Source: Methanothrix sp.
Lineage (GTDB): Archaea > Halobacteriota > Methanosarcinia > Methanotrichales > Methanotrichaceae
Assembly: GCA_037128175.1 (NCBI GenBank)
Contig: JBAXWY010000045.1
Coordinates: 1 to 24,048, forward strand
DNA length: 24,048 bases
Reading direction: 5' to 3'
Shown: positions 12,065 to 21,106 of the stretch, piece by piece
Position numbering within the stretch: the stretch's first letter is position 1
Layout: each line of letters starts with the position of its first letter
Program-made: the position numbers and the translations under genes
The notes under the pieces: model-generated
What the model was told of the DNA's origin: nothing
Seen by the model: the letters and a program-made list of their open reading frames with translations, nothing else
Database searches by the model: none

Positions 12065-12520
12065 TCAAGCTCCGCAGCCTCCGCCACAGCCTCCTCCGCC
12101 AGCCGTCGAGGTTGTGCTGCCCCTCGACCCGGAGATGGGATACATGATGTTTGTATATCCGGCCAGGTTCTTGTTTGTCCTATCTCTGGAATAACCGGAT
12201 AGATCAAGAATCTTTTTGCCGGAAGACTGGGAAGTGCCGGCGCCGGGCACCACAATTGATGGTCCGACCAGAGAAGAATTGTCCATTGAGGTACCATTAA
12301 TCGAGCTGTTATTCAATGAAGAGTTATTTGTTGGTACCTGGATGGCCTGAGACCCGCCCAGGACCGGCACGGCTTTTCCGCTGGAGGCAGAAGATGCCGC
12401 CAGATTCAGATCACCCATATACACCATTCCTCCGCCCGGTGACCACTGGGCAGAGGCATTAAAGGCCAGGGCAATGAACATGACACCCAGAGCCAAGGCC
12501 GCATATTTTGCAGATAACAT
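12065..12520 (-). CDS. Secreted low-complexity hypothetical protein with C-terminal GGGGGCGGGCGA tail
   Basis: Signal peptide ending ASA|Q; Ser/Asn/Gly-rich linker with NxS/T sequons; Gly-Cys C-terminus. Confidence 0.78.
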   Translation of the reverse strand: MLSAKYAALALGVMFIALAFNASAQWSPGGGMVYMGDLNLAASSASSGKAVPVLGGSQAIQVPTNNSSLNNSSINGTSMDNSSLVGPSIVVPGAGTSQSSGKKILDLSGYSRDRTNKNLAGYTNIMYPISGSRGSTTSTAGGGGCGGGCGA

Positions 12521-12631: not shown

Positions 12632-14047
12632 TTACTTCTTGGGTGGCCAGAAATCCTTCATCCAGCCGATGATGCGGCCGGAGTCTTCTGGGCCGACCAT
12701 GATCTTGGTCTTGCCTGCGAAGAGGTCCTCCAGCTCGCCGGAGAACTTGGCAGCCATTCCGGGCAGAACCATTGCAGGATACTTCTGGTCCTCCCACTTG
12801 AAGGCAGCCTCGTTGAAGGAATCCAGGATCTTGGTCGGGCTCAACTGGCCGCCGGCTACAGACGCCTGCACGCCGATTCCGTCGGTATTGATGGCAATGA
12901 TGTAGGCATCGATACCATTGGAGGCGATATCCGACTCTACTGTGTAGTAGGTCAGGGCAAAGTTCGTGGTCAAGAAGACCGGGGACTCAGGCCCTGGCTT
13001 GCCAACCTTGTAGATGCCGGGCTTGACCTGCACGGGCGTCCTCGGATCGGTGTAGATGTTGAAGCGCAGATGCATATCCGGCATCATGCTGTGAGCCTCA
13101 AGCGAGTGCTTGATCATGATGGCTCCGCCGCGAATGGTGAAGGCAGCGGTGAGCACAGACTCCCAGTAGGAAGCTCGAACTGGATCATCAGTGGTCAGCC
13201 AGGCGTTGATGGGCAGCACCATGACTGGATAGGCGATATCCCTCTGGGCTTCTTCAACAGCGGCTCTTCGGAGGTTAATGAAGTTGAGCAAGGTCTGCTG
13301 CAGCAATTTGCCGTTGGGTGCAGTTCCTGGGTCTAAGATGAGATTGGTGAGACCCATGCCGGCAAAGGTGACGGCCATGGACTTCAAGCCATCCAGATCG
13401 AAGGGCACGCTGAGGGTCACTGGCACCTTATAGTCAAAGGCGAGCTGTGCGACCTCCTTCCAGTTGTCCTTGTTGGCGGCGTAGATGAGGGGATTGACCT
13501 TGGCGGCGACCTCAAGTCCAGCCTTAAGAACGGCAGGATTAAAGGAGCAGAGGATGAGCGGGAAGTCCGAATTAGCCATGACTGTCTTGACGCAGGCTGC
13601 GAACTTAGCCGGGTCGTCACTCACAGAGCGGACTGCAATCATCTCTACGTTTTGCCACTTGCCGATGTAGAACTTGCGCCAGGTAGAGATCTTCTTGACG
13701 CGCTCTACAAGCTTTGCCTCTTCCATGTTGTCGGCTACATCGTAGGCAAATGGTGGCTTGTTGAAGAAGGTCATCTGGTGGCGGAACATGACGTCCTCGC
13801 CGCCGACCTTGACCTGCTTTTCTCCGACGCCGATGTATACCATCTTAAGTTCAGGAGCGACGATGCTCCTCAGAGTCTCAAGCTTCTTGGCGTACTTCTC
13901 CTCATCTACCAGTGGAGTGCACTCCTCTACCTTCCTGGTCCTGGATATCAGGCCAGCGGCATAGGCCATGCAGGTCTCCTCTCCGCACTTCTTACAGTTG
14001 GTCTGTGGAAGCTGCTTGTAAAGGTTAAGCGGGCTAGTTTCCTTCAT
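12632..14047 (-). CDS. cdhE: ACDS gamma subunit (corrinoid iron-sulfur protein large subunit)
   Basis: LPQTNCKKCGEETCMAYA...C [4Fe-4S] motif, IYTDPR, TTNFALTYYTV and VGPEDS. Confidence 0.97.
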   Translation of the reverse strand: MKETSPLNLYKQLPQTNCKKCGEETCMAYAAGLISRTRKVEECTPLVDEEKYAKKLETLRSIVAPELKMVYIGVGEKQVKVGGEDVMFRHQMTFFNKPPFAYDVADNMEEAKLVERVKKISTWRKFYIGKWQNVEMIAVRSVSDDPAKFAACVKTVMANSDFPLILCSFNPAVLKAGLEVAAKVNPLIYAANKDNWKEVAQLAFDYKVPVTLSVPFDLDGLKSMAVTFAGMGLTNLILDPGTAPNGKLLQQTLLNFINLRRAAVEEAQRDIAYPVMVLPINAWLTTDDPVRASYWESVLTAAFTIRGGAIMIKHSLEAHSMMPDMHLRFNIYTDPRTPVQVKPGIYKVGKPGPESPVFLTTNFALTYYTVESDIASNGIDAYIIAINTDGIGVQASVAGGQLSPTKILDSFNEAAFKWEDQKYPAMVLPGMAAKFSGELEDLFAGKTKIMVGPEDSGRIIGWMKDFWPPKK

Positions 14048-14053
14048 TGTCTC

Positions 14054-15406
14054 TCACACCCCCATCTTGAGCCAGGCGGCAGTATCGGGCGTCTTAGCCT
14101 CAATTCTTCCCATCAGGGACTGAGTGATCTCATGCACATAGGCAACAGCCGTTGGGTGCATCATCATGAAGATGTCCACACCGGCCATGGCCAGAGAGTA
14201 TCCGGTCAAAATCTCCCAGATTGGGCCTCTAAGCATGCGGTCTCCCCAGTCGGAGTCGTCCTTGTTGGGTGAGCGGACCATCCAGGACTCTCTGACACCC
14301 CAGGCGTTGGTGGTGCCGGAGGACATGGGGAAGGTCAGCTCTTCGTCGCCCTTCAGAGCGCCGAGGCGAATTCTCTCCATGTTGGAGTAGGCGAAGTCCA
14401 GGCCGTAAGCGAGCGCGGCGGTGGTTGGGTCCATGACGATGGACTCGCGGGGAACGCCGGCGACCTTCATGAGCTTCCGATTCAGCTCCTTCTGAGAGTT
14501 AATCTCAAGCTGTGTCCAGGCCAGGCACACATGTCCGTTGTCCACACAGGCCTTGCCTATCTTCTCCCAATCCATGTTCAGGTTGGCGGAGGCGATGAGA
14601 ACGCGCTCGCCCTGGGCAGCTTCTGCCGCCTTGGAGAGCACTATTGGGTCCTTGGTGGGGTTGCCGGATCCGCCGATACAGATTGGCACATCCACAGCCT
14701 GAAGAACCTCTTCCACCGTCTTGACTGCCTCTTGAGCAGAGGTGTCCTTGAGGAGCGGATCAGTGCTGATCAGGTGAACGGTGACCATGTCGGCGCCGTA
14801 CTTCTTGACGGCTTTCTTGGCCCATTCGCCTGGGGAGTTGATGACGTCCTCATAGTGCACCTTGACGGCCTTGGCCATGCCGATGGGCATGTCGAAGACG
14901 TCCATGGTGATCTTGGGGGCATGAGGCATGGCTGCATCCGGGAAGAAAGGCATAGCCTTCTCGCCGCCCAGCTTGACCACATGACCGCGGCTTCCGCCGT
15001 TTGCTTTGGTAGCGCCCAGTGTGACCTCCTGGATGGTGTTCCTCCAGGTCTTGTCTACGCCGACGGCAAACTTGGCGCTCGCCAAGGTTGATGCCACCCT
15101 AAAGGCCGGCACAGCCGCAGCCAGAGCTGCCAGATCCTTAGGAGCCGGAGAAATTGCCTGCGCGATAGCTACCGGCTGGAGCAGATTCTCTACGGGATAG
15201 CCTACCGCCTTGGCGAAGTTCATGAGCTGCATGGCGATCTTGGCCGCCTCTTGTCCGAAATAGTATGCAAACAGGGGGCCTACGCCGCCAGCACCTGCAT
15301 CTATCTCTATCTCTACATCACCCTCGATCTTTAATCCCTCGAGGGATTGAACATTCATTTCTGCTAATGTCTTATTAAGGTCAGATAAAGAGATCTTCTC
15401 TGCCAT
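14054..15406 (-). CDS. cdhD: ACDS delta subunit (CFeSP small subunit) with N-terminal extension
   Basis: [38 protein letters not shown] and MMMHP motifs. Confidence 0.97.
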
Positions 15407-15417
15407 TCAAATCACCC

Positions 15418-16179
15418 TCACAGGCCCAGTTTCCCGACGATCTGCGCCATTTCTTGTACTGCAGGCGATTCATCGGGAAGGCCCATCAATGGATCTCCCA
15501 CTAAATCGAATTTGGCTAAGCTTTCATCATGGGGAATAGTGCCGATAACCAACAGGCCGATGCCTTTAGCATTCTCGAGAACCTTATCCTTGCTTCCCGC
15601 GGTGACCTTGTTCACGATCACATAGAGATTTTTATATTGTAGCTCAATCTCGCGGGCAGTGTCACGTATGCGCTCGCCCGTGGTAAGCCCTCTTCTGGAC
15701 TCATCCGTCACCACGATAAGATCGTCGAGGTCGGGAATGGTCTTCCTGCTGAAATGCTCCAGGCCCGCCGGCGTGTCAATGATGATCAGATCGTAGCTGG
15801 CCGTGGTCTTATCCATAACGGCACGCAGAAGATTGTTGACAAAACAGTAACACCCAGATCCTTCCGGCTTGCCCATGACAAGAAGATCATAGCCCTCCTC
15901 CTCCAAGAGAATCTCGAAGAGCTTGGCCTCAAGAAGCGCCTGCTTGTCCGTATCCGGTGAAGCTGTGAACCGGGACTGCTGCACGAACTCCCTCATGTCG
16001 CCAATGGTCTTCCCCGCCTTTGCGCCCAGCGCATCAGCCAGGTTGGCGTCAGGATCGGCGTCAATTGCAAGTATTCGGTATTTTTTTCCGGAATTCTTTA
16101 CAAGGTATCTAATAAGCATCGCGGTCACCGCTGTCTTGCCGGTGCCGCCCTTACCGGTTACCGCTATTACTTTCCCCAA
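15418..16179 (-). CDS. cooC: CooC/AcsF-type nickel-insertion ATPase
   Basis: GKGGTGKT deviant Walker A, IDADPD, GCYC nickel motif and AGLEHFSR; TTG start; inside the cdh operon. Confidence 0.92.
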   Translation of the reverse strand: MGKVIAVTGKGGTGKTAVTAMLIRYLVKNSGKKYRILAIDADPDANLADALGAKAGKTIGDMREFVQQSRFTASPDTDKQALLEAKLFEILLEEEGYDLLVMGKPEGSGCYCFVNNLLRAVMDKTTASYDLIIIDTPAGLEHFSRKTIPDLDDLIVVTDESRRGLTTGERIRDTAREIELQYKNLYVIVNKVTAGSKDKVLENAKGIGLLVIGTIPHDESLAKFDLVGDPLMGLPDESPAVQEMAQIVGKLGL

Positions 16180-16193
16180 TGTCTAGCCATCCC

Positions 16194-16367
16194 CTATTTT
16201 TTCCTTATGATAACTTCCGCTACGTGGATGGATGCGCCTCTAAGCTCAATGGTCATTCCACCCGATGATGCTGCTGGCATAGCGAAAGCCGGAGCTGCTG
16301 CGCCTGCTGCTGCCGCAGGTGCGGCCGCGGCTGGAGCGTCTTCTTTTTTCTTAAGCTTAAGCTGCAT
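16194..16367 (-). CDS. ACDS-operon microprotein 2 (57 aa), CdhC C-terminal-tail-like
   Basis: MQLKLKKKEDAPAAAAPAAAAGAAAPAFAMPAASSGGMTIELRGASIHVAEVIIRKK*; RBS GAGGGAG; start set to 16367 by alignment with its paralog. Confidence 0.85.
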   Translation of the reverse strand: MQLKLKKKEDAPAAAAPAAAAGAAAPAFAMPAASSGGMTIELRGASIHVAEVIIRKK

Positions 16368-16411
16368 GAATATCTCCCTCACTTTATACTTATACGATAG
16401 CATTCGCCTCG

Positions 16412-16448
16412 TAAAATCTGCCTCTCCCAAAAAAGGAGATAGGCAGAC
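16412..16448 (-). terminator. Intra-operon stem-loop (partial terminator or RNA-stability element)
   Basis: Minus strand GTCTGCCTATCTCC-TTTTTTG-GGAGAGGCAGA-TTTT immediately after the microprotein 1 stop. Confidence 0.6.
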
Positions 16449-16449
16449 T

Positions 16450-16623
16450 CTACTTAGCGAGTACTACCTTGTCTATGCTGATCTTGGCATCCTTGAGTAT
16501 CAGCTTAATGCCGCCGGCGCTGCCGGACATGGAAAAAGCTGGTGCTGCTGCCCCTGCTGCTGCAGCCGGTGCGGCTGCGGGAGCCGCGGCGGCCGGTGTC
16601 TTTGGCTTGAGTTTTAACTGCAT
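16450..16623 (-). CDS. ACDS-operon microprotein 1 (57 aa), CdhC C-terminal-tail-like; absent from the ORF track
   Basis: Hand translation MQLKLKPKTPAAAAPAAAPAAAAGAAAPAFSMSGSAGGIKLILKDAKISIDKVVLAK*; RBS GAGGGTGA; paralog of 16194-16367. Confidence 0.88.
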   Translation of the reverse strand: MQLKLKPKTPAAAAPAAAPAAAAGAAAPAFSMSGSAGGIKLILKDAKISIDKVVLAK

Positions 16624-16666
16624 AGATTTTCACCCTCTTTGATTATTACTCATTCGCAAATTTAGC

Positions 16667-18073
16667 TCACTCGAGAACGCCATCAGCCTGCAGAGCCTCA
16701 ACGACCTGCATGAACTGGTTTTCGGAGAGAGCCATCTCGGACTTGACGGTATCAATGTTGATGTCTCCGCCCGTCTTCTCGATATAGGCCATGACCTTCT
16801 CTTTGATCTCGTCGGAAATATCTTCCAGAACCCAGCCCTCGGTGATCTTCTTGCCGTCTACTTTCCTGGTGACGCCGTTAACAACGGGGTGGTCGACCTT
16901 GAGCAGGAAGGACTTGAGAGCGGCGATATCCTTGGCATCGTCTTCAGTGGCGATCTTGGCCATCATGTCCTCATCGATGCCTGCCTTTACTCTTTCCTTG
17001 AGGCCCTTGGACATCCAGGCGATCCTTCTCCAGCCGCCATCGGCCTGAAGGAACTTGGGGGAGAGGTAGTAGAGAATGCCCATTCCCAGGAATCCTACAA
17101 CCTGCTTGCCGCCGCCCGTCTGTCCTGCCATGGTTGAGAAGGGAAGACCGTTGGGGGTTGCGCCCTTGAAGTCACGATCGGCTAGACCGATGCCGTCAAC
17201 CTCGGGCATGTAGAAGCCTATGGTCTCGAAGCAGCCACAGGAGGTGTGGGGTGCATCAAAGAACGTGTAGAGCAGCATCCTGCTGTACTCGCCGCCCGAC
17301 CTCTTGGAGGCCATCTCATTGATGGCTTCATACTCGCCGGAAACTGCGTCCGTTGCCGTTCCCTTGGGTATGGGGAACTGGGGGCCCTCTGGGTCCACCT
17401 TGGCGGCAGCGCGTCCATCGAACCAGGTGATAGCTCCGCACAGAGATGGCCTGTCCGGGGTAACCACGCAGGCGCTGGTGGGTGCGAAGGCCTGACAGAG
17501 TGTGCAGCCGTAGAAGACATCTACGTCCTCATCGTGCAGTCCCTTGGCGCGCTCGTCACGAGTCTTGTAGACGGCCATGGCCTTGGCCAGCTCCGCCTTA
17601 ACCTGGGCAGGGTCGGTGACAATGGTGATCTCCATCTTCTCGATGAAGGGCATCTCGGCCTTGTACAGATCGATGATGGGAGTAAAGATCTCTTTCCAGG
17701 AGGTTACACCCTTCTTGGCCAGGCTCTTGCCGACTCTCATCCAGATATCGTATCTCTGGTTGAGATGCATGAGGCCGCTGATGTAGGAGAGCAGGGCGTG
17801 GTTGCGCCTCTCGATGATGGACTCCAGATCCTTCTCGATCTTTTCGCCGCCGACCTTGAATATCATGCCGAAGGGAATGGTGGAGCCTTCCTTGATATCC
17901 TTGAGCTCAGGACCGATGACAGTAACCCTTCCATCCACAATCTCATCCATGGGTGCCGACAGGGACAGCTCGAATCCGTCTGCCTTGGGGCCGCCCAGCT
18001 CTACCCATAGATCGTCCTTTCTGATTCTCTCGCCCTCATACATAGGGGATATATCCAACTTTATGTCTGCCAT
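16667..18073 (-). CDS. cdhC: ACDS beta subunit (acetyl-CoA synthase, A-cluster) with atypical C-terminal domain
   Basis: YEGERIRK, HLNQRYDIW, FYGCTLCQAFAP, HTSCGCFE and FSTMAGQTGGG motifs. Confidence 0.97.
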   Translation of the reverse strand: MADIKLDISPMYEGERIRKDDLWVELGGPKADGFELSLSAPMDEIVDGRVTVIGPELKDIKEGSTIPFGMIFKVGGEKIEKDLESIIERRNHALLSYISGLMHLNQRYDIWMRVGKSLAKKGVTSWKEIFTPIIDLYKAEMPFIEKMEITIVTDPAQVKAELAKAMAVYKTRDERAKGLHDEDVDVFYGCTLCQAFAPTSACVVTPDRPSLCGAITWFDGRAAAKVDPEGPQFPIPKGTATDAVSGEYEAINEMASKRSGGEYSRMLLYTFFDAPHTSCGCFETIGFYMPEVDGIGLADRDFKGATPNGLPFSTMAGQTGGGKQVVGFLGMGILYYLSPKFLQADGGWRRIAWMSKGLKERVKAGIDEDMMAKIATEDDAKDIAALKSFLLKVDHPVVNGVTRKVDGKKITEGWVLEDISDEIKEKVMAYIEKTGGDINIDTVKSEMALSENQFMQVVEALQADGVLE

Positions 18074-18104: not shown

Positions 18105-18668
18105 TTATTTCTGCATTGCTGCGATTACTTCGTCCACGGCGGCGTGATAGTCGTCGGGGATGAAGGCCATGTTGCCAAAGGTCATATTCGCGTTGATGTG
18201 ATAGTACCGGTCAACGGATATGCGCTTGATGTCCCGGTTGAAGTTCTTGAGAGTTGCGAACATGGCGTTGGCGAATTTGTAGAAGATGCCCATAAAGATA
18301 ACGGCATCGTACTGTCCCTGTCCATCCAGGCCCTTCCAGTCGGGGAAGCGCAGGTTGTTGGTCAGGGGGTGCAGGCCGATCTGGTAGACGTTCTCCAGGT
18401 AGCCTCTGTCTACAAAGCCTTTCACGGAATGCGCCGTGGCGGCGATGGGAATGCCCATCTTGCCCATCTCGATCATCTTATCGAACATGATGGGGTCGTC
18501 AAAAAGCTCTGCCCCCACAACGAGCAGAGGCCTCTTGGCCTTCTTGATTATAGCGCCCATAACCTTCGGCATGTAGCACTTGGCCTGCTCCGGTCCGGGG
18601 ACCTGGGCCATCTCAAAGGGAATGGGATTCTTGGTGGTGTCAATGCCCTTCTTAACTTCTGCTGCCAT
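18105..18668 (-). CDS. cdhB: ACDS epsilon subunit
   Basis: IKKAKRPLLVVG, WKGLDGQGQYD and NANMTFGN; start reassigned to ATG 18668 behind RBS AGGAGGAG. Confidence 0.95.
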   Translation of the reverse strand: MAAEVKKGIDTTKNPIPFEMAQVPGPEQAKCYMPKVMGAIIKKAKRPLLVVGAELFDDPIMFDKMIEMGKMGIPIAATAHSVKGFVDRGYLENVYQIGLHPLTNNLRFPDWKGLDGQGQYDAVIFMGIFYKFANAMFATLKNFNRDIKRISVDRYYHINANMTFGNMAFIPDDYHAAVDEVIAAMQK

Positions 18669-18688
18669 TTTCTGTCTCCTCCTTGCCC

Positions 18689-21106
18689 TCACTTCTTGGT
18701 CCTGATCTTGCGCGGGAGATTGGTCGGGTCGAAGCTCACATCAGCGGGCCGCAGCGGTCCGGTAAGGATCTTCTTGGCCTTCCAGTCGATCGTCCAGCCG
18801 TGCTTTGACTCCAGCTCCTTCATCATCATTTCCTTGTATGCGAGGGGGAGGTCTTTGGCGTCGCGGACGAAGATATGCCAATCGTCGGGCAGTTTGCCGC
18901 AGTACTTCATGGAGATATCACAGTAGTGGGTCAGCTTGATCGCTCGACCGATGCTGTTATCGGAAGGCCGCAGGCAGAGCTTGGCCATCTCAACCATAGC
19001 CTCTTCCTTGGTCTCGGCGATATAGAGCATGGCCTCGGGTGCGGGCTCAATCTGCTGCATCTTGCCGTCGCGAGCATCGATGACCATCCAGTCCTCGGGC
19101 TTGTCCGTCCTGCCGATGAAAGAGCGGCGGTACATGACAGAGTGAGGCTGAACTACCACGGGAATACCGAGCCTGTTGCAGCCAGTAGCGATAGAAGCGG
19201 CCTTCTGAGAGTATGCTCCCCAGGCCACGCCGCAGGCACCAACTTTGTTCAGGATGTAGTCGGCGATATCGTCGAAGTTGCCCCTGTGGTTTCGGTGGGC
19301 GAATATGGTGGCCACCTTGATGGCAGCGTCGCCGATATTGGCGTTGGAAACGCACGAGCCGGTGTTGCAGATGTTGCGACCGTCAAAGCCTCCGGGATAC
19401 TGTTCCCAGATGGTCTTGCCGTCTTCATCGGTGTAGAGGGACATATCCATGGCCATGCATCCAGAAGTGACAACGATGTAGCCGCGGTCTACGAACTCCT
19501 TGGCCATATCATAGCACTCCTTGGTGCCGTTGGGATAGTTGCTGCATCCGACCAGAGCTATGACTCCAGGAATGGTGCCGAGCACAATGGGCGCACCTAC
19601 AGCTCGAATCTCAGTATCGCGAGCGGGTCCGCGTCCGGATCTCATCTTGAACTTCTGATTCTTGATATATTGGCGGTTGGCATACTCGAAGAGGTCCAGA
19701 ATGTTTATGCCCTGAGGGCAGGACTGCTCGCACTTGCCGCATCCTACGCAAATCTCGTAATAGTTGGAGAATGGCAACAGATCGCCCTTCACGGCATCCG
19801 CAATGAGTTTGCTGATCCTGATGTGGGGCGGGCAGACAAATGCGCACTCATTGCACTGAGTACACTTCGCTACGCTTTCCTTGAACTGCTCTTCTGTGAG
19901 CAGGTTCTGAATCTTGGCCTCAGCACGCTTGGGCTTCACGGCTATGGCAACCCGTATGCCTATTTCGCCGGCTTTTATTGGGTCCAATACGGCAACGCCC
20001 GGTATCTTGAAGCTCACCAGGTCGTCAACTATGGCATCAATCGAGTCATTGGTCCTATCCGGCAAGCCAAGCATGATCTTGTCTGTGGTGGCAATGACAG
20101 GGATCTTGCGCTTTTCGGCATCTGCAAGAACATCACAGAAGACACACTGCTCGTCCACCATGACACAGTCCATGACACCGGAGCGAATCATCTTTCTCCA
20201 CCAGCCCATAGCACCAGCTACCTTGGGCTTCATGCCTATGCCGGCGGGAACCTTGGCTTCGCCCTTGCCCAGACCAATTCTGTTCAGGTCATGAGCTGTA
20301 CAGCAGACGCCGCCTATGTCCACCTTGTCCCAGAGATTGTTGCTCTCGGCGTACATCATGGCTTCAGCGCCAGCTGCCAGGTTATGGCCGTAGGCGATGA
20401 GAACGCCCTTGCTCTGGTCCATGGTGCCCATGCCGATCTCAATGATGGGGGCATCAGCTGCGCCACGGGGCATATTGTAAGCCACAATCTGCAGCATGTC
20501 GCAAATCTCCATGCCAAGCAAGTCCAACATACCGGCATGCAGAGCTTTGGACTCGAAATCTATGAAAGCGCTCTCTTGACCGGTGTGGGTAGCTGCCAGA
20601 AGCTGTACGACCTCTTCCTCAAGGTAATAGAGTCCCTCATTGAAGTCCTTGAAGTTCCTGGGCTTGGTGCCCATGATGGTCTGGTACAGGGGAGAGTCTA
20701 CCAGAATCTCGTCGCCCATGTCAAACTTCATGTCGCCGAACTTGTCCATGCACCAGTGGTAAAGATGTCTTCCATGGGCCGCATGCGCACAGCACCCCAT
20801 CAGGCAGGCAATTAAAACAATCTTGCCGCAAGCTCCGGCCTGATCAATGCCGCAGGCTCCGCGCTTGTTGCCTGTTAGGTCGCATGGACCATAGGTACAA
20901 AGAGTGCATGTATCGTCTGCCGGGGCGTACATGATCTTGTATCTGTTAGCGATCATATGATCCCAGGATCGGAGCGTTGCCACACCGGGCTTGGGATGTG
21001 GTCCCATCTCCTGGTCCCACTCATCCGCTTCCTTAACGACAGCCCCTATGTTGATCTGGACGTTCTTCATGTCCTCAACCGAAAAGCTGCCCTCTCTTGT
21101 TGCCAT
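18689..21106 (-). CDS. cdhA: ACDS alpha subunit (Ni-CO dehydrogenase)
   Basis: CTLCTYGPC, HAAHGRH, CCTAHD, DEQC, two ferredoxin motifs (CTQCNECAFVCP, CVGCGKCEQSCP), GSCVSN and SQKA. Confidence 0.98.
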   Translation of the reverse strand: MATREGSFSVEDMKNVQINIGAVVKEADEWDQEMGPHPKPGVATLRSWDHMIANRYKIMYAPADDTCTLCTYGPCDLTGNKRGACGIDQAGACGKIVLIACLMGCCAHAAHGRHLYHWCMDKFGDMKFDMGDEILVDSPLYQTIMGTKPRNFKDFNEGLYYLEEEVVQLLAATHTGQESAFIDFESKALHAGMLDLLGMEICDMLQIVAYNMPRGAADAPIIEIGMGTMDQSKGVLIAYGHNLAAGAEAMMYAESNNLWDKVDIGGVCCTAHDLNRIGLGKGEAKVPAGIGMKPKVAGAMGWWRKMIRSGVMDCVMVDEQCVFCDVLADAEKRKIPVIATTDKIMLGLPDRTNDSIDAIVDDLVSFKIPGVAVLDPIKAGEIGIRVAIAVKPKRAEAKIQNLLTEEQFKESVAKCTQCNECAFVCPPHIRISKLIADAVKGDLLPFSNYYEICVGCGKCEQSCPQGINILDLFEYANRQYIKNQKFKMRSGRGPARDTEIRAVGAPIVLGTIPGVIALVGCSNYPNGTKECYDMAKEFVDRGYIVVTSGCMAMDMSLYTDEDGKTIWEQYPGGFDGRNICNTGSCVSNANIGDAAIKVATIFAHRNHRGNFDDIADYILNKVGACGVAWGAYSQKAASIATGCNRLGIPVVVQPHSVMYRRSFIGRTDKPEDWMVIDARDGKMQQIEPAPEAMLYIAETKEEAMVEMAKLCLRPSDNSIGRAIKLTHYCDISMKYCGKLPDDWHIFVRDAKDLPLAYKEMMMKELESKHGWTIDWKAKKILTGPLRPADVSFDPTNLPRKIRTKK

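Follow-up and report, generated by a model that had tools for sequence, protein, structure and literature searches.

Two tandem microproteins between cdhC and cooC in Methanothrix as probable detached copies of the CdhC C-terminal tail

In Methanosarcina, acetyl-CoA decarbonylase/synthase (ACDS) forms a supercomplex built on a coiled coil at the N terminus of CdhD, and the disordered C terminus of CdhC (residues 401 to 470 in M. acetivorans), together with the N terminus of CdhA, has been proposed to hold acetyl-CoA synthase (ACS) and CO dehydrogenase (CODH) on that scaffold (PMC13370988). In a 2024 cryo-electron microscopy (EM) study, residues 398 to 472 of the corresponding chain 9c0s_E had no EM density, were left out of the model, and were described as having an "unknown function" (PMC11474084). 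One crosslink between CdhA E15 and CdhC K452 has been reported (PMC13370988); by its position in the 470-residue protein, and with the 469-residue protein of locus L057 as a guide, K452 would fall inside the tail module. The same 2026 preprint describes one nested clade of CdhC proteins as "lacking" this extension, and its portions covered here make no mention of free tails or of Methanothrix (PMC13370988). Here, we describe a cdh operon in which CdhC has no such tail and two small genes between cdhC and cooC encode a counterpart of it. The operon lies on a stretch of 24,048 nucleotides (nt) from Methanothrix sp. (contig JBAXWY010000045.1 of assembly GCA_037128175.1), which we refer to as the window, and the two predicted products, each of 57 amino acids (aa), as microprotein 1 and microprotein 2. 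We found no description of free tail genes, of a winged-helix CdhC end, or of extra small Methanothrix ACDS subunits in the literature searched, a scope with few subscription journals, without the first reports of cdh cloning from Methanothrix, and without the supplements of PMC13370988 and PMC11474084, which might hold CdhC alignments or trees showing a tail-less clade or Methanothrix sequences.

An earlier, sequence-only reading of this DNA had described two tandem genes in this interval, each with its own ribosome-binding site, and we confirmed both the coordinates and the Shine-Dalgarno (SD) sequences (Table 1). The ATG of microprotein 1 follows the cdhC stop codon by 43 nt in a different reading frame (offset 1), and its open frame begins only 2 codons before that ATG (a 59-aa frame). 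For microprotein 2, the listed open reading frame (ORF) has 78 aa and starts from a TTG at 16430 (16194 to 16430), with an internal ATG at 16367 that yields 57 aa. We chose the internal ATG because the SD sequence and the orthologs favor it; in relatives, conservation upstream of this Met goes no further than the residues that the SD itself encodes. The earlier statement that the two proteins are of identical length therefore holds for this start and fails for the ORF as listed. Their common layout and their status as paralogs were upheld: with 43% identity and the same module order, both consist of a basic strand, MQLKLK(P/K)K, an Ala/Pro spacer (residues 10 to 30 are 81 to 90% A plus P), PAF(S/A)M, GG, and an amphipathic tail of ~19 residues. 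Microprotein 1 begins with MQLKLKPK, carries PAFSM, and has a tail near the canonical CdhC tail. The orthologs of the two form distinct groups, one ending in ...GGIKL(I/V)LKDAK(I/V)(S/T)I(D/E)KV(V/T)LAK and the other in GG(M/I)x(I/L)ELRGAx(I/V)x(I/V)xEV(V/I)I followed by a Lys-rich end.

In both microproteins, the last ~30 residues are the part that matches the C-terminal tail of Methanosarcina-type CdhC. The NCBIfam CdhC model NF003379 (464 positions) aligns residues 18 to 56 of microprotein 1 to positions 420 to 458 (E = 8e-5) and microprotein 2 to positions 413 to 460 (E = 0.032), and it aligns the window CdhC to positions 3 to 418 only. Profile similarity to CdhC tails, on which the earlier proposal depended, was clear when the two families were compared by hhalign with ten fused tails (98.9%, E = 3.9e-17, for the microprotein 1 family; 95.6%, E = 1.3e-8, for the microprotein 2 family). 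Microprotein 1 is also the closer of the two to the CdhC tail, as had been supposed, scoring 20.8 to 32.4 bits against fused tails by phmmer versus 0 to 22.5 bits for microprotein 2. The profile of the microprotein 1 family matches residues 418 to 465 of PDB 9c0s_E, the Methanosarcina thermophila beta subunit (E = 5.7e-10), and residues 1 to 404 of the window CdhC align to residues 1 to 403 of that chain only. All 11 CdhC frames that we read from four other families of the class (f2 to f5) end in the tail, where an acidic linker leads into a patch rich in Met and Pro, followed by GG(V/I)K(L/I/V)x(L/F)KNAK(I/V)x(I/V)D(K/R)xxI. The tail motif that the earlier reading gave for Methanosarcina-type CdhC is thus real, being visible in these fused frames and in 9c0s_E.

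Like the Methanosarcina extension (residues ~398 to 472 in M. thermophila 9c0s and 401 to 470 in M. acetivorans), the microproteins combine a linker, a Met/Pro/Phe-rich patch, GG, and a ~19-residue amphipathic tail, and they occupy the same place in the cdh operon, directly after the ACS core and before cooC. Unlike it, they are not covalent to the ACS core, from which a stop codon, the 43-nt spacer, a change of frame, and an SD and ATG of their own divide them, and they are present twice. Their linker is Ala/Pro-rich and preceded by a basic strand, whereas the fused Methanosarcina form has an acidic Glu run, and the ACS core here leads into a helical domain rather than into linker and tail. 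Taken together, these comparisons show that the microproteins descend from the linker-plus-tail module at the C terminus of CdhC through gene fission, and that the free tail gene was then duplicated in tandem in Methanotrichaceae.

The codon pattern of both ORFs is that expected of real, conserved protein-coding genes under purifying selection. Over the tail codons, 9 different peptides are encoded by 37 distinct DNA sequences of microprotein 1 and 18 by 40 of microprotein 2, with summed pairwise ratios of nonsynonymous to synonymous change (pN/pS) of 0.12 and 0.21, respectively; the rows were chosen by amino acid pattern, which lowers pN, and since the pattern caught 46 and 43 of 48 family loci, this bias is small. 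Variable sites per codon position number 7/2/20 in 21 codons of microprotein 1 and 13/6/19 in 19 codons of microprotein 2. Metatranscriptome contigs from 4 runs in 4 studies cover the region, and two of them, X1 (845 nt) and X3 (1800 nt), bridge cooC and cdhC; such contigs show presence in RNA libraries, not the start or level of transcription. Among the indels listed in these contigs, the only ones fall at 16368 and 16425, both in the spacer between the ORFs.

This 85-nt spacer folds at -27.8 kcal/mol (z = -3.63), and a stem stands at the same place in most of 60 distinct family spacers, its letters varying around a CUCCC/GGGAG core with a U-rich loop. A terminator pattern scan did not list the hairpin (16414 to 16450), which emerged from folding and the family comparison. 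It may end or stabilize a cdhABC-microprotein 1 transcript, or it may set the ratio of the two microproteins.

The sequence-only reading went wrong in holding that standard annotation misses these proteins, as 304 short homologs (31 to 100 aa) are already called as genes in public collections. What annotation lacks is a correct name. Among the best 120 of the 304, NCBI records read "hypothetical protein" and JGI records read "CO dehydrogenase/acetyl-CoA synthase beta subunit," and the free tail protein of Ca. Syntrophoarchaeum caldarius is recorded as a "secreted protein"; all three are wrong as descriptions. The JGI name is misleading for 57-aa proteins because their match to TIGR00316 (CdhC/acetyl-CoA synthase beta) reaches only 16.1 bits against a cutoff of 355.95 and covers only the last ~30 model positions, the catalytic A2 and A3 domains being absent. 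A search restricted to longer homologs gave one match among 8000 scored candidates, a frame of 142 aa that reads through both microproteins, is garbled in places, and is probably a sequencing error; the Ala-rich linker crowds this search, which makes it uninformative on fused forms.

We next consider how widely the split occurs. Microprotein 1 used as a query matched 139 of 151 genomes of the class, distributed as 69 of 74 in f1 (Methanotrichaceae, the family of the window), 0 of 3 in f2, 63 of 67 in f3, 4 of 4 in f4, and 2 of 2 in f5. Among the matches listed, those in f1 all lie in frames of 40 to 129 aa, and those in f3 and f4 lie at the CdhC end of frames of 466 to 483 aa, with the exception of a 62-aa frame on contig C143 of genome G087. 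The f2 tails are fused too and are too diverged for this query. Within the family, 57 of 61 genomes had a match, covering 15 of 16 genera; the matches always lay in short frames and nearly always formed a tandem pair ~250 nt apart. In three of the four unmatched genomes, cdhC is absent from the assembly, and the fourth, G038, has only a gapped cdhC copy that is followed directly by another gene; in two more genomes without a match in the class search, cdhC is cut by the contig end. At 62 named loci whose CdhC has the end domain described below, two tails were found at 50, one at 9, and none at 3. All three loci without a tail are cut by a contig end, six of the nine with one tail lie outside Methanotrichaceae, and in the remaining three (L121, L131, and L133) a contig end or Ns truncate the locus. 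Free microproteins and a tail-less CdhC thus go together across Methanotrichaceae, as had been anticipated.

The window genome contains one cdhC. Genome G022 has a second cdhC locus (L062, C1:849404-853798) with microprotein 1 and without microprotein 2, cooC, or cdhD in the ~1.2 kb read downstream. Seven of the 15 genomes of its genus have three matches at E ≤ 0.01 which, where listed, comprise a pair of type 1 and a single type 2. In Methanothrix harundinacea-like genomes (L062 and L059), the second locus consists of cdhC followed by genes for a membrane protein of 250 aa and for an HdrD-like protein rich in Cys.

The earlier account of CdhC as tail-less was correct, and it overlooked a different domain of 64 residues at the end of the protein. 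The window CdhC lacks the tail yet is not shorter; this extension takes the place of the acidic linker and tail found in Methanosarcina. In every CdhC frame of the family that we read, the conserved DHPVV is followed by a hairpin, GVxRxVDGKKITEGW, then by ~50 acidic residues, and then by the stop codon. An AlphaFold2 (AF2) model of the 109 C-terminal residues, made from a 10-row alignment, has a predicted local distance difference test score (pLDDT) of 77.8 and contains helices at model residues 62 to 75, 81 to 88, and 92 to 104 (CdhC residue = model residue + 359), where pLDDT is ~80 to 87. Foldseek comparison of this end-domain model with PDB gave no match at E ≤ 0.001 among 103 listed. The top folds are small winged helices, namely Z-alpha (4hob, E = 0.59), CdvB second (2xvc_A, E = 0.67, probability 0.87, TMt 0.64), and Lrp/AsnC heads, and a CdvB NCBIfam model matches CdhC residues 423 to 467 weakly (E = 0.014). 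A profile of the end domain searched against 1.84 billion representatives gave 49 matches at E ≤ 0.001, and a Pfam scan of 10 of these 49 returned six of HTH_24, HTH_11, MarR, or DUF7343 type, one CdhC, and three other contexts with the match at the C terminus.

Despite this resemblance to winged helices, the end domain is unlikely to bind DNA, because the last 55 residues of CdhC have a net charge of -9 (4 K+R versus 13 D+E); the basic surface typical of the DNA-binding winged-helix class is absent. On this ground, we rejected a DNA-binding regulator as its identity, and from its composition a protein-binding role appears more likely. Archaeoglobus-type CdhC keeps the hairpin and continues into an acidic linker and fused tail, so the three-helix part, the stop, and the new start look like an inserted element.

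The split extends beyond Methanotrichaceae. Searching 301 genomes of the phylum with the tail profile gave 165 with a match, and short-frame matches outside the family were found in f8 (three "Methanocellales archaeon" metagenome-assembled genomes [MAGs]), f10 ("Methanosarcinales archaeon Met12" and relatives), f11 (Ca. Methanoliparum/Methanolliviera), and f21 (Ca. Syntrophoarchaeum caldarius, with a free tail protein of 53 aa). Methanoliparia, Ca. Syntrophoarchaeum, some Methanocellales-labeled MAGs, and "Met12" thus have one free tail each, and two free tails occurred only in Methanotrichaceae among the genomes searched. Of 12 outside loci examined, 10 have a CdhC with the helical end domain and one tail frame, which in 9 is an ORF with a start codon, a basic N-terminal motif (e.g., M-A-K-K-L-Q-L-K-I-K-K-K-E), a linker, and the tail; the remaining frame, that of L073, has no start codon. 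The other 2 of the 12 have a fused CdhC and a mini tail ORF of 22 to 30 aa. The pairing is the same in every split lineage: CdhC ends in an acidic hairpin plus three-helix domain, and the free tail begins with a conserved basic strand (K-L-x-L-K-x-K-K), after which comes a flexible Ala/Pro spacer.

Several individual loci deserve mention. In Archaeoglobus-type loci (Archaeoglobus is f7), a free second copy of the tail hairpin, without a linker, lies between a fused cdhC and cooC (L076:2707-2796, 30 aa, and L077:3146-3211, 22 aa); the 30-aa L076 ORF is already in public protein collections, nameless. Like the microproteins, these ORFs place a free hairpin motif (K-x-I-L-K-G-A-K-I-Y-I-E-K-V) between cdhC and cooC, and unlike them they are only 22 to 30 aa long, with neither linker nor basic motif, next to a CdhC that is fused and has no helical end domain. 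In Ca. Syntrophoarchaeum caldarius, where no cooC stands between the free tail and cdhD, CdhD itself (L075:1307-2797) starts with a basic motif, M-V-K-V-K-L-K-K-K-E, like that of the free tail protein just upstream, so the motif looks like a portable docking strand. At L071 (835-3051, in f10), the CdhC frame has 739 aa with an N-terminal extension of ~285 residues, and close relatives in its cluster have 453 aa; this frame either includes a fused upstream domain or is over-long.

In a tree built from 34 rows of the CdhC core, trimmed ahead of the end region, split-type rows occupy at least 4 groups, with 9 of 31 inner branches weak, and a single clade of split CdhCs was not rejected (approximately unbiased test, P = 0.123). 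This tree labels L144 as split although it is fused, includes L142, and leaves out L072, L077, L143, L147, L148, L150, L151, and L152 (all except L147 through a motif filter). As it stands, the core tree is compatible with a single origin of the split and with multiple origins.

On balance, we consider it probable that the microproteins are trans-encoded tethers or assembly subunits of ACDS, acting as two-ended adaptors that arose by fission of the CdhC tail. As small extra subunits, they would do in trans what the fused Methanosarcina tail is proposed to do, holding ACS near the CdhD-based scaffold and the CODH N terminus while leaving it free to swing between partners. The C-terminal amphipathic tail would bind the core of the complex, and the Ala/Pro spacer would serve as the arm. 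Ala/Pro-rich linkers act as swinging arms in the E2 subunit of 2-oxo acid dehydrogenases and in biotin carrier subunits. The microprotein linker resembles these in composition and, likely, in being an extended flexible spacer, and it weakly matches a methylmalonyl-CoA decarboxylase gamma subunit (E = 0.083); the likeness is compositional only, and unlike swinging-arm proteins, the microproteins have no lipoyl or biotinyl domain. At the other end, the basic N-terminal strand could dock on the acidic end domain of CdhC, much as the CdvA peptide docks on CdvB. There, the C-terminal peptide of CdvA reportedly completes the wing of the broken winged helix of CdvB (PDB 2xvc). Both cases pair a C-terminal three-helix domain of winged-helix type with a short strand-forming peptide on another protein; the likeness to CdvB is nonsignificant (Foldseek E = 0.67, profile E = 0.014), and docking here is a speculative analogy.

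Within this tether scheme, the two microproteins may have different tasks. By its sequence and position, microprotein 1 retains the canonical tail and goes along with cdhC, a link supported by the second cdhC locus of G022, which keeps microprotein 1 only, and by the genomes of that genus with three matches. Microprotein 2, with its diverged tail, probably binds a different site or partner. A bolder version of the same scheme, which we offer tentatively and think unlikely to hold in all its parts, has the acidic CdhC end and the basic microprotein strand forming a noncovalent snap, a detachable and exchangeable ACS tether in a seven-subunit ACDS whose two tails would go to the CODH N terminus and the CdhD scaffold, with the hairpin between the genes setting their ratio.

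Several observations weigh against the tether. The assembly role of the tail, on which the sequence-only reading relied, is a proposal in the literature even for Methanosarcina (PMC13370988, PMC11474084). In Pfam, no family matches the CdhC end domain above threshold, with DUF7343 coming nearest (E = 0.024, 14.9 bits, cutoff 27.6), and its fold similarity to CdvB and Z-alpha is nonsignificant (best E = 0.59). The gapped copy in G038 (L059, contig C78) has the end domain, a 41-residue internal gap, and no tail gene beside it. That the end domain and the basic motif occur together may be the result of a single common origin instead of a functional link, and the RNA evidence consists of assembled metatranscriptome contigs only, which may include DNA and cannot show translation.

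Free tails might alternatively be structural parts of the ACDS core, together with the CdhD and CdhA termini, that do not bind CdhC at all, in which case the new CdhC domain would itself be the tether and the microproteins would serve core assembly, not as adaptors for ACS. We regard this as rather unlikely, though it has evidence on its side. The Archaeoglobus-type mini ORFs, with no linker and no basic motif, sit beside a fused CdhC, and a tail can therefore be free where nothing requires it to reattach to CdhC. In an AF2 single-chain model of an Archaeoglobus-type fused CdhC (498 aa, 18-row alignment), moreover, the core is confident, residues 439 to 476 have pLDDT below 50, and 10-residue blocks over residues 471 to 498 average 45, 59, and 53, with one short helix at 493 to 497; the tail of this monomer does not dock on its own core, a result that is uninformative on binding in the complex. 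Against a purely structural part stand the basic N-terminal motif and long spacer, which this account leaves without a role and which were seen only with an acidic end domain (9 of 10 loci), and the partial second locus of G022, which keeps microprotein 1 with cdhC and without cdhD and cdhE.

A role in maturation, such as helping the CooC nucleoside triphosphatase (NTPase) deliver nickel to the A-cluster, would account for the position of the microprotein genes directly upstream of cooC, a place that the tail-encoding end of a fused cdhC also occupies. It is very unlikely, given that G022 keeps microprotein 1 without cooC at its second cdhC locus, that the Syntrophoarchaeum free tail has no cooC between it and cdhD, and that the microproteins have no metal-binding residues (Cys is absent, and the sole His lies in the microprotein 2 tail). 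Least credible, to the point that we would be surprised if it held, is the notion that the ORFs represent what is left of a broken, decaying cdhC 3' end or that frameshifting or readthrough rejoins them to CdhC. They do derive from that 3' end and begin only 43 nt past its stop. Remnants, however, would not be expected to show purifying selection and conserved SDs and starts, or to be kept in 15 of 16 genera and several other lineages. Recoding we rejected on frame and stop positions, with microprotein 1 in a different frame from cdhC and opening just 2 codons before its ATG; the lengths of the upstream open frames vary from 57 to 92 aa among relatives, which leaves no conserved path for recoding.

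The probable tether matters beyond this operon, as the split offers a natural handle on how a giant acetate-splitting complex is held together. With a free tail of 5 to 6 kDa in Methanothrix, Methanoliparia, Syntrophoarchaeum, and others, tail function becomes testable apart from the catalytic subunit, and comparison of microproteins 1 and 2 can reveal which residues are important. Work on Methanothrix ACDS, whether proteomic, structural, or stoichiometric, should seek two extra small subunits, and the public names of their genes need correction. The snap version, if true, would mean that one of the oldest complexes of carbon fixation was rebuilt in a lineage-specific way, in organisms that carry out much of acetoclastic methanogenesis.

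The window contains a complete cdh operon on its minus strand (Table 1).

Table 1. Features of the cdh operon in the window
Feature	Positions	Strand	Basis
cdhA (CODH alpha)	18689-21106	-	TIGR00314, 1060 bits
cdhB (epsilon)	18105-18692	-	TIGR00315
cdhC, 468 aa	16667-18073	-	
cdhC core, residues 1-404 (A2 and A3 domains of acetyl-CoA synthase)	16862-18073	-	Pfam CdhC and ACS_CODH_B_C
cdhC C-terminal extension, residues 405-468 and stop, hairpin (GVxRKVDGKKITEGW) then acidic three-helix winged-helix-like domain	16667-16861	-	
SD GAGGGTGA of microprotein 1, 6 nt 5' of ATG	16630-16637	-	
Microprotein 1, 57 aa, ATG at 16623	16450-16623	-	
Stem-loop starting in microprotein 1 stop codon, 3' arm ending in U run	16414-16450	-	
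SD GAGGGAG of microprotein 2, 6 nt 5' of ATG	16374-16380	-	
Microprotein 2, 57 aa from ATG at 16367, diverged tail GGMTIELRGASIHVAEVII	16194-16367	-	
cooC-type P-loop NTPase (nickel-insertion accessory protein), TTG start	15418-16179	-	CbiA/ParA-type matches; name from operon position
cdhD (delta)	14054-15406	-	NF003375
cdhE (gamma)	12632-14047	-	NF003195

By eye, a stretch in the N-terminal part of the window CdhD resembles the M. acetivorans CdhD coiled-coil segment given in PMC13370988. Just downstream of cdhE, a 151-aa ORF on the minus strand (12065 to 12520) starts like a signal peptide, is rich in Asn and Ser in its middle, and has a Gly/Cys-rich C terminus, GGGGCGGGC.

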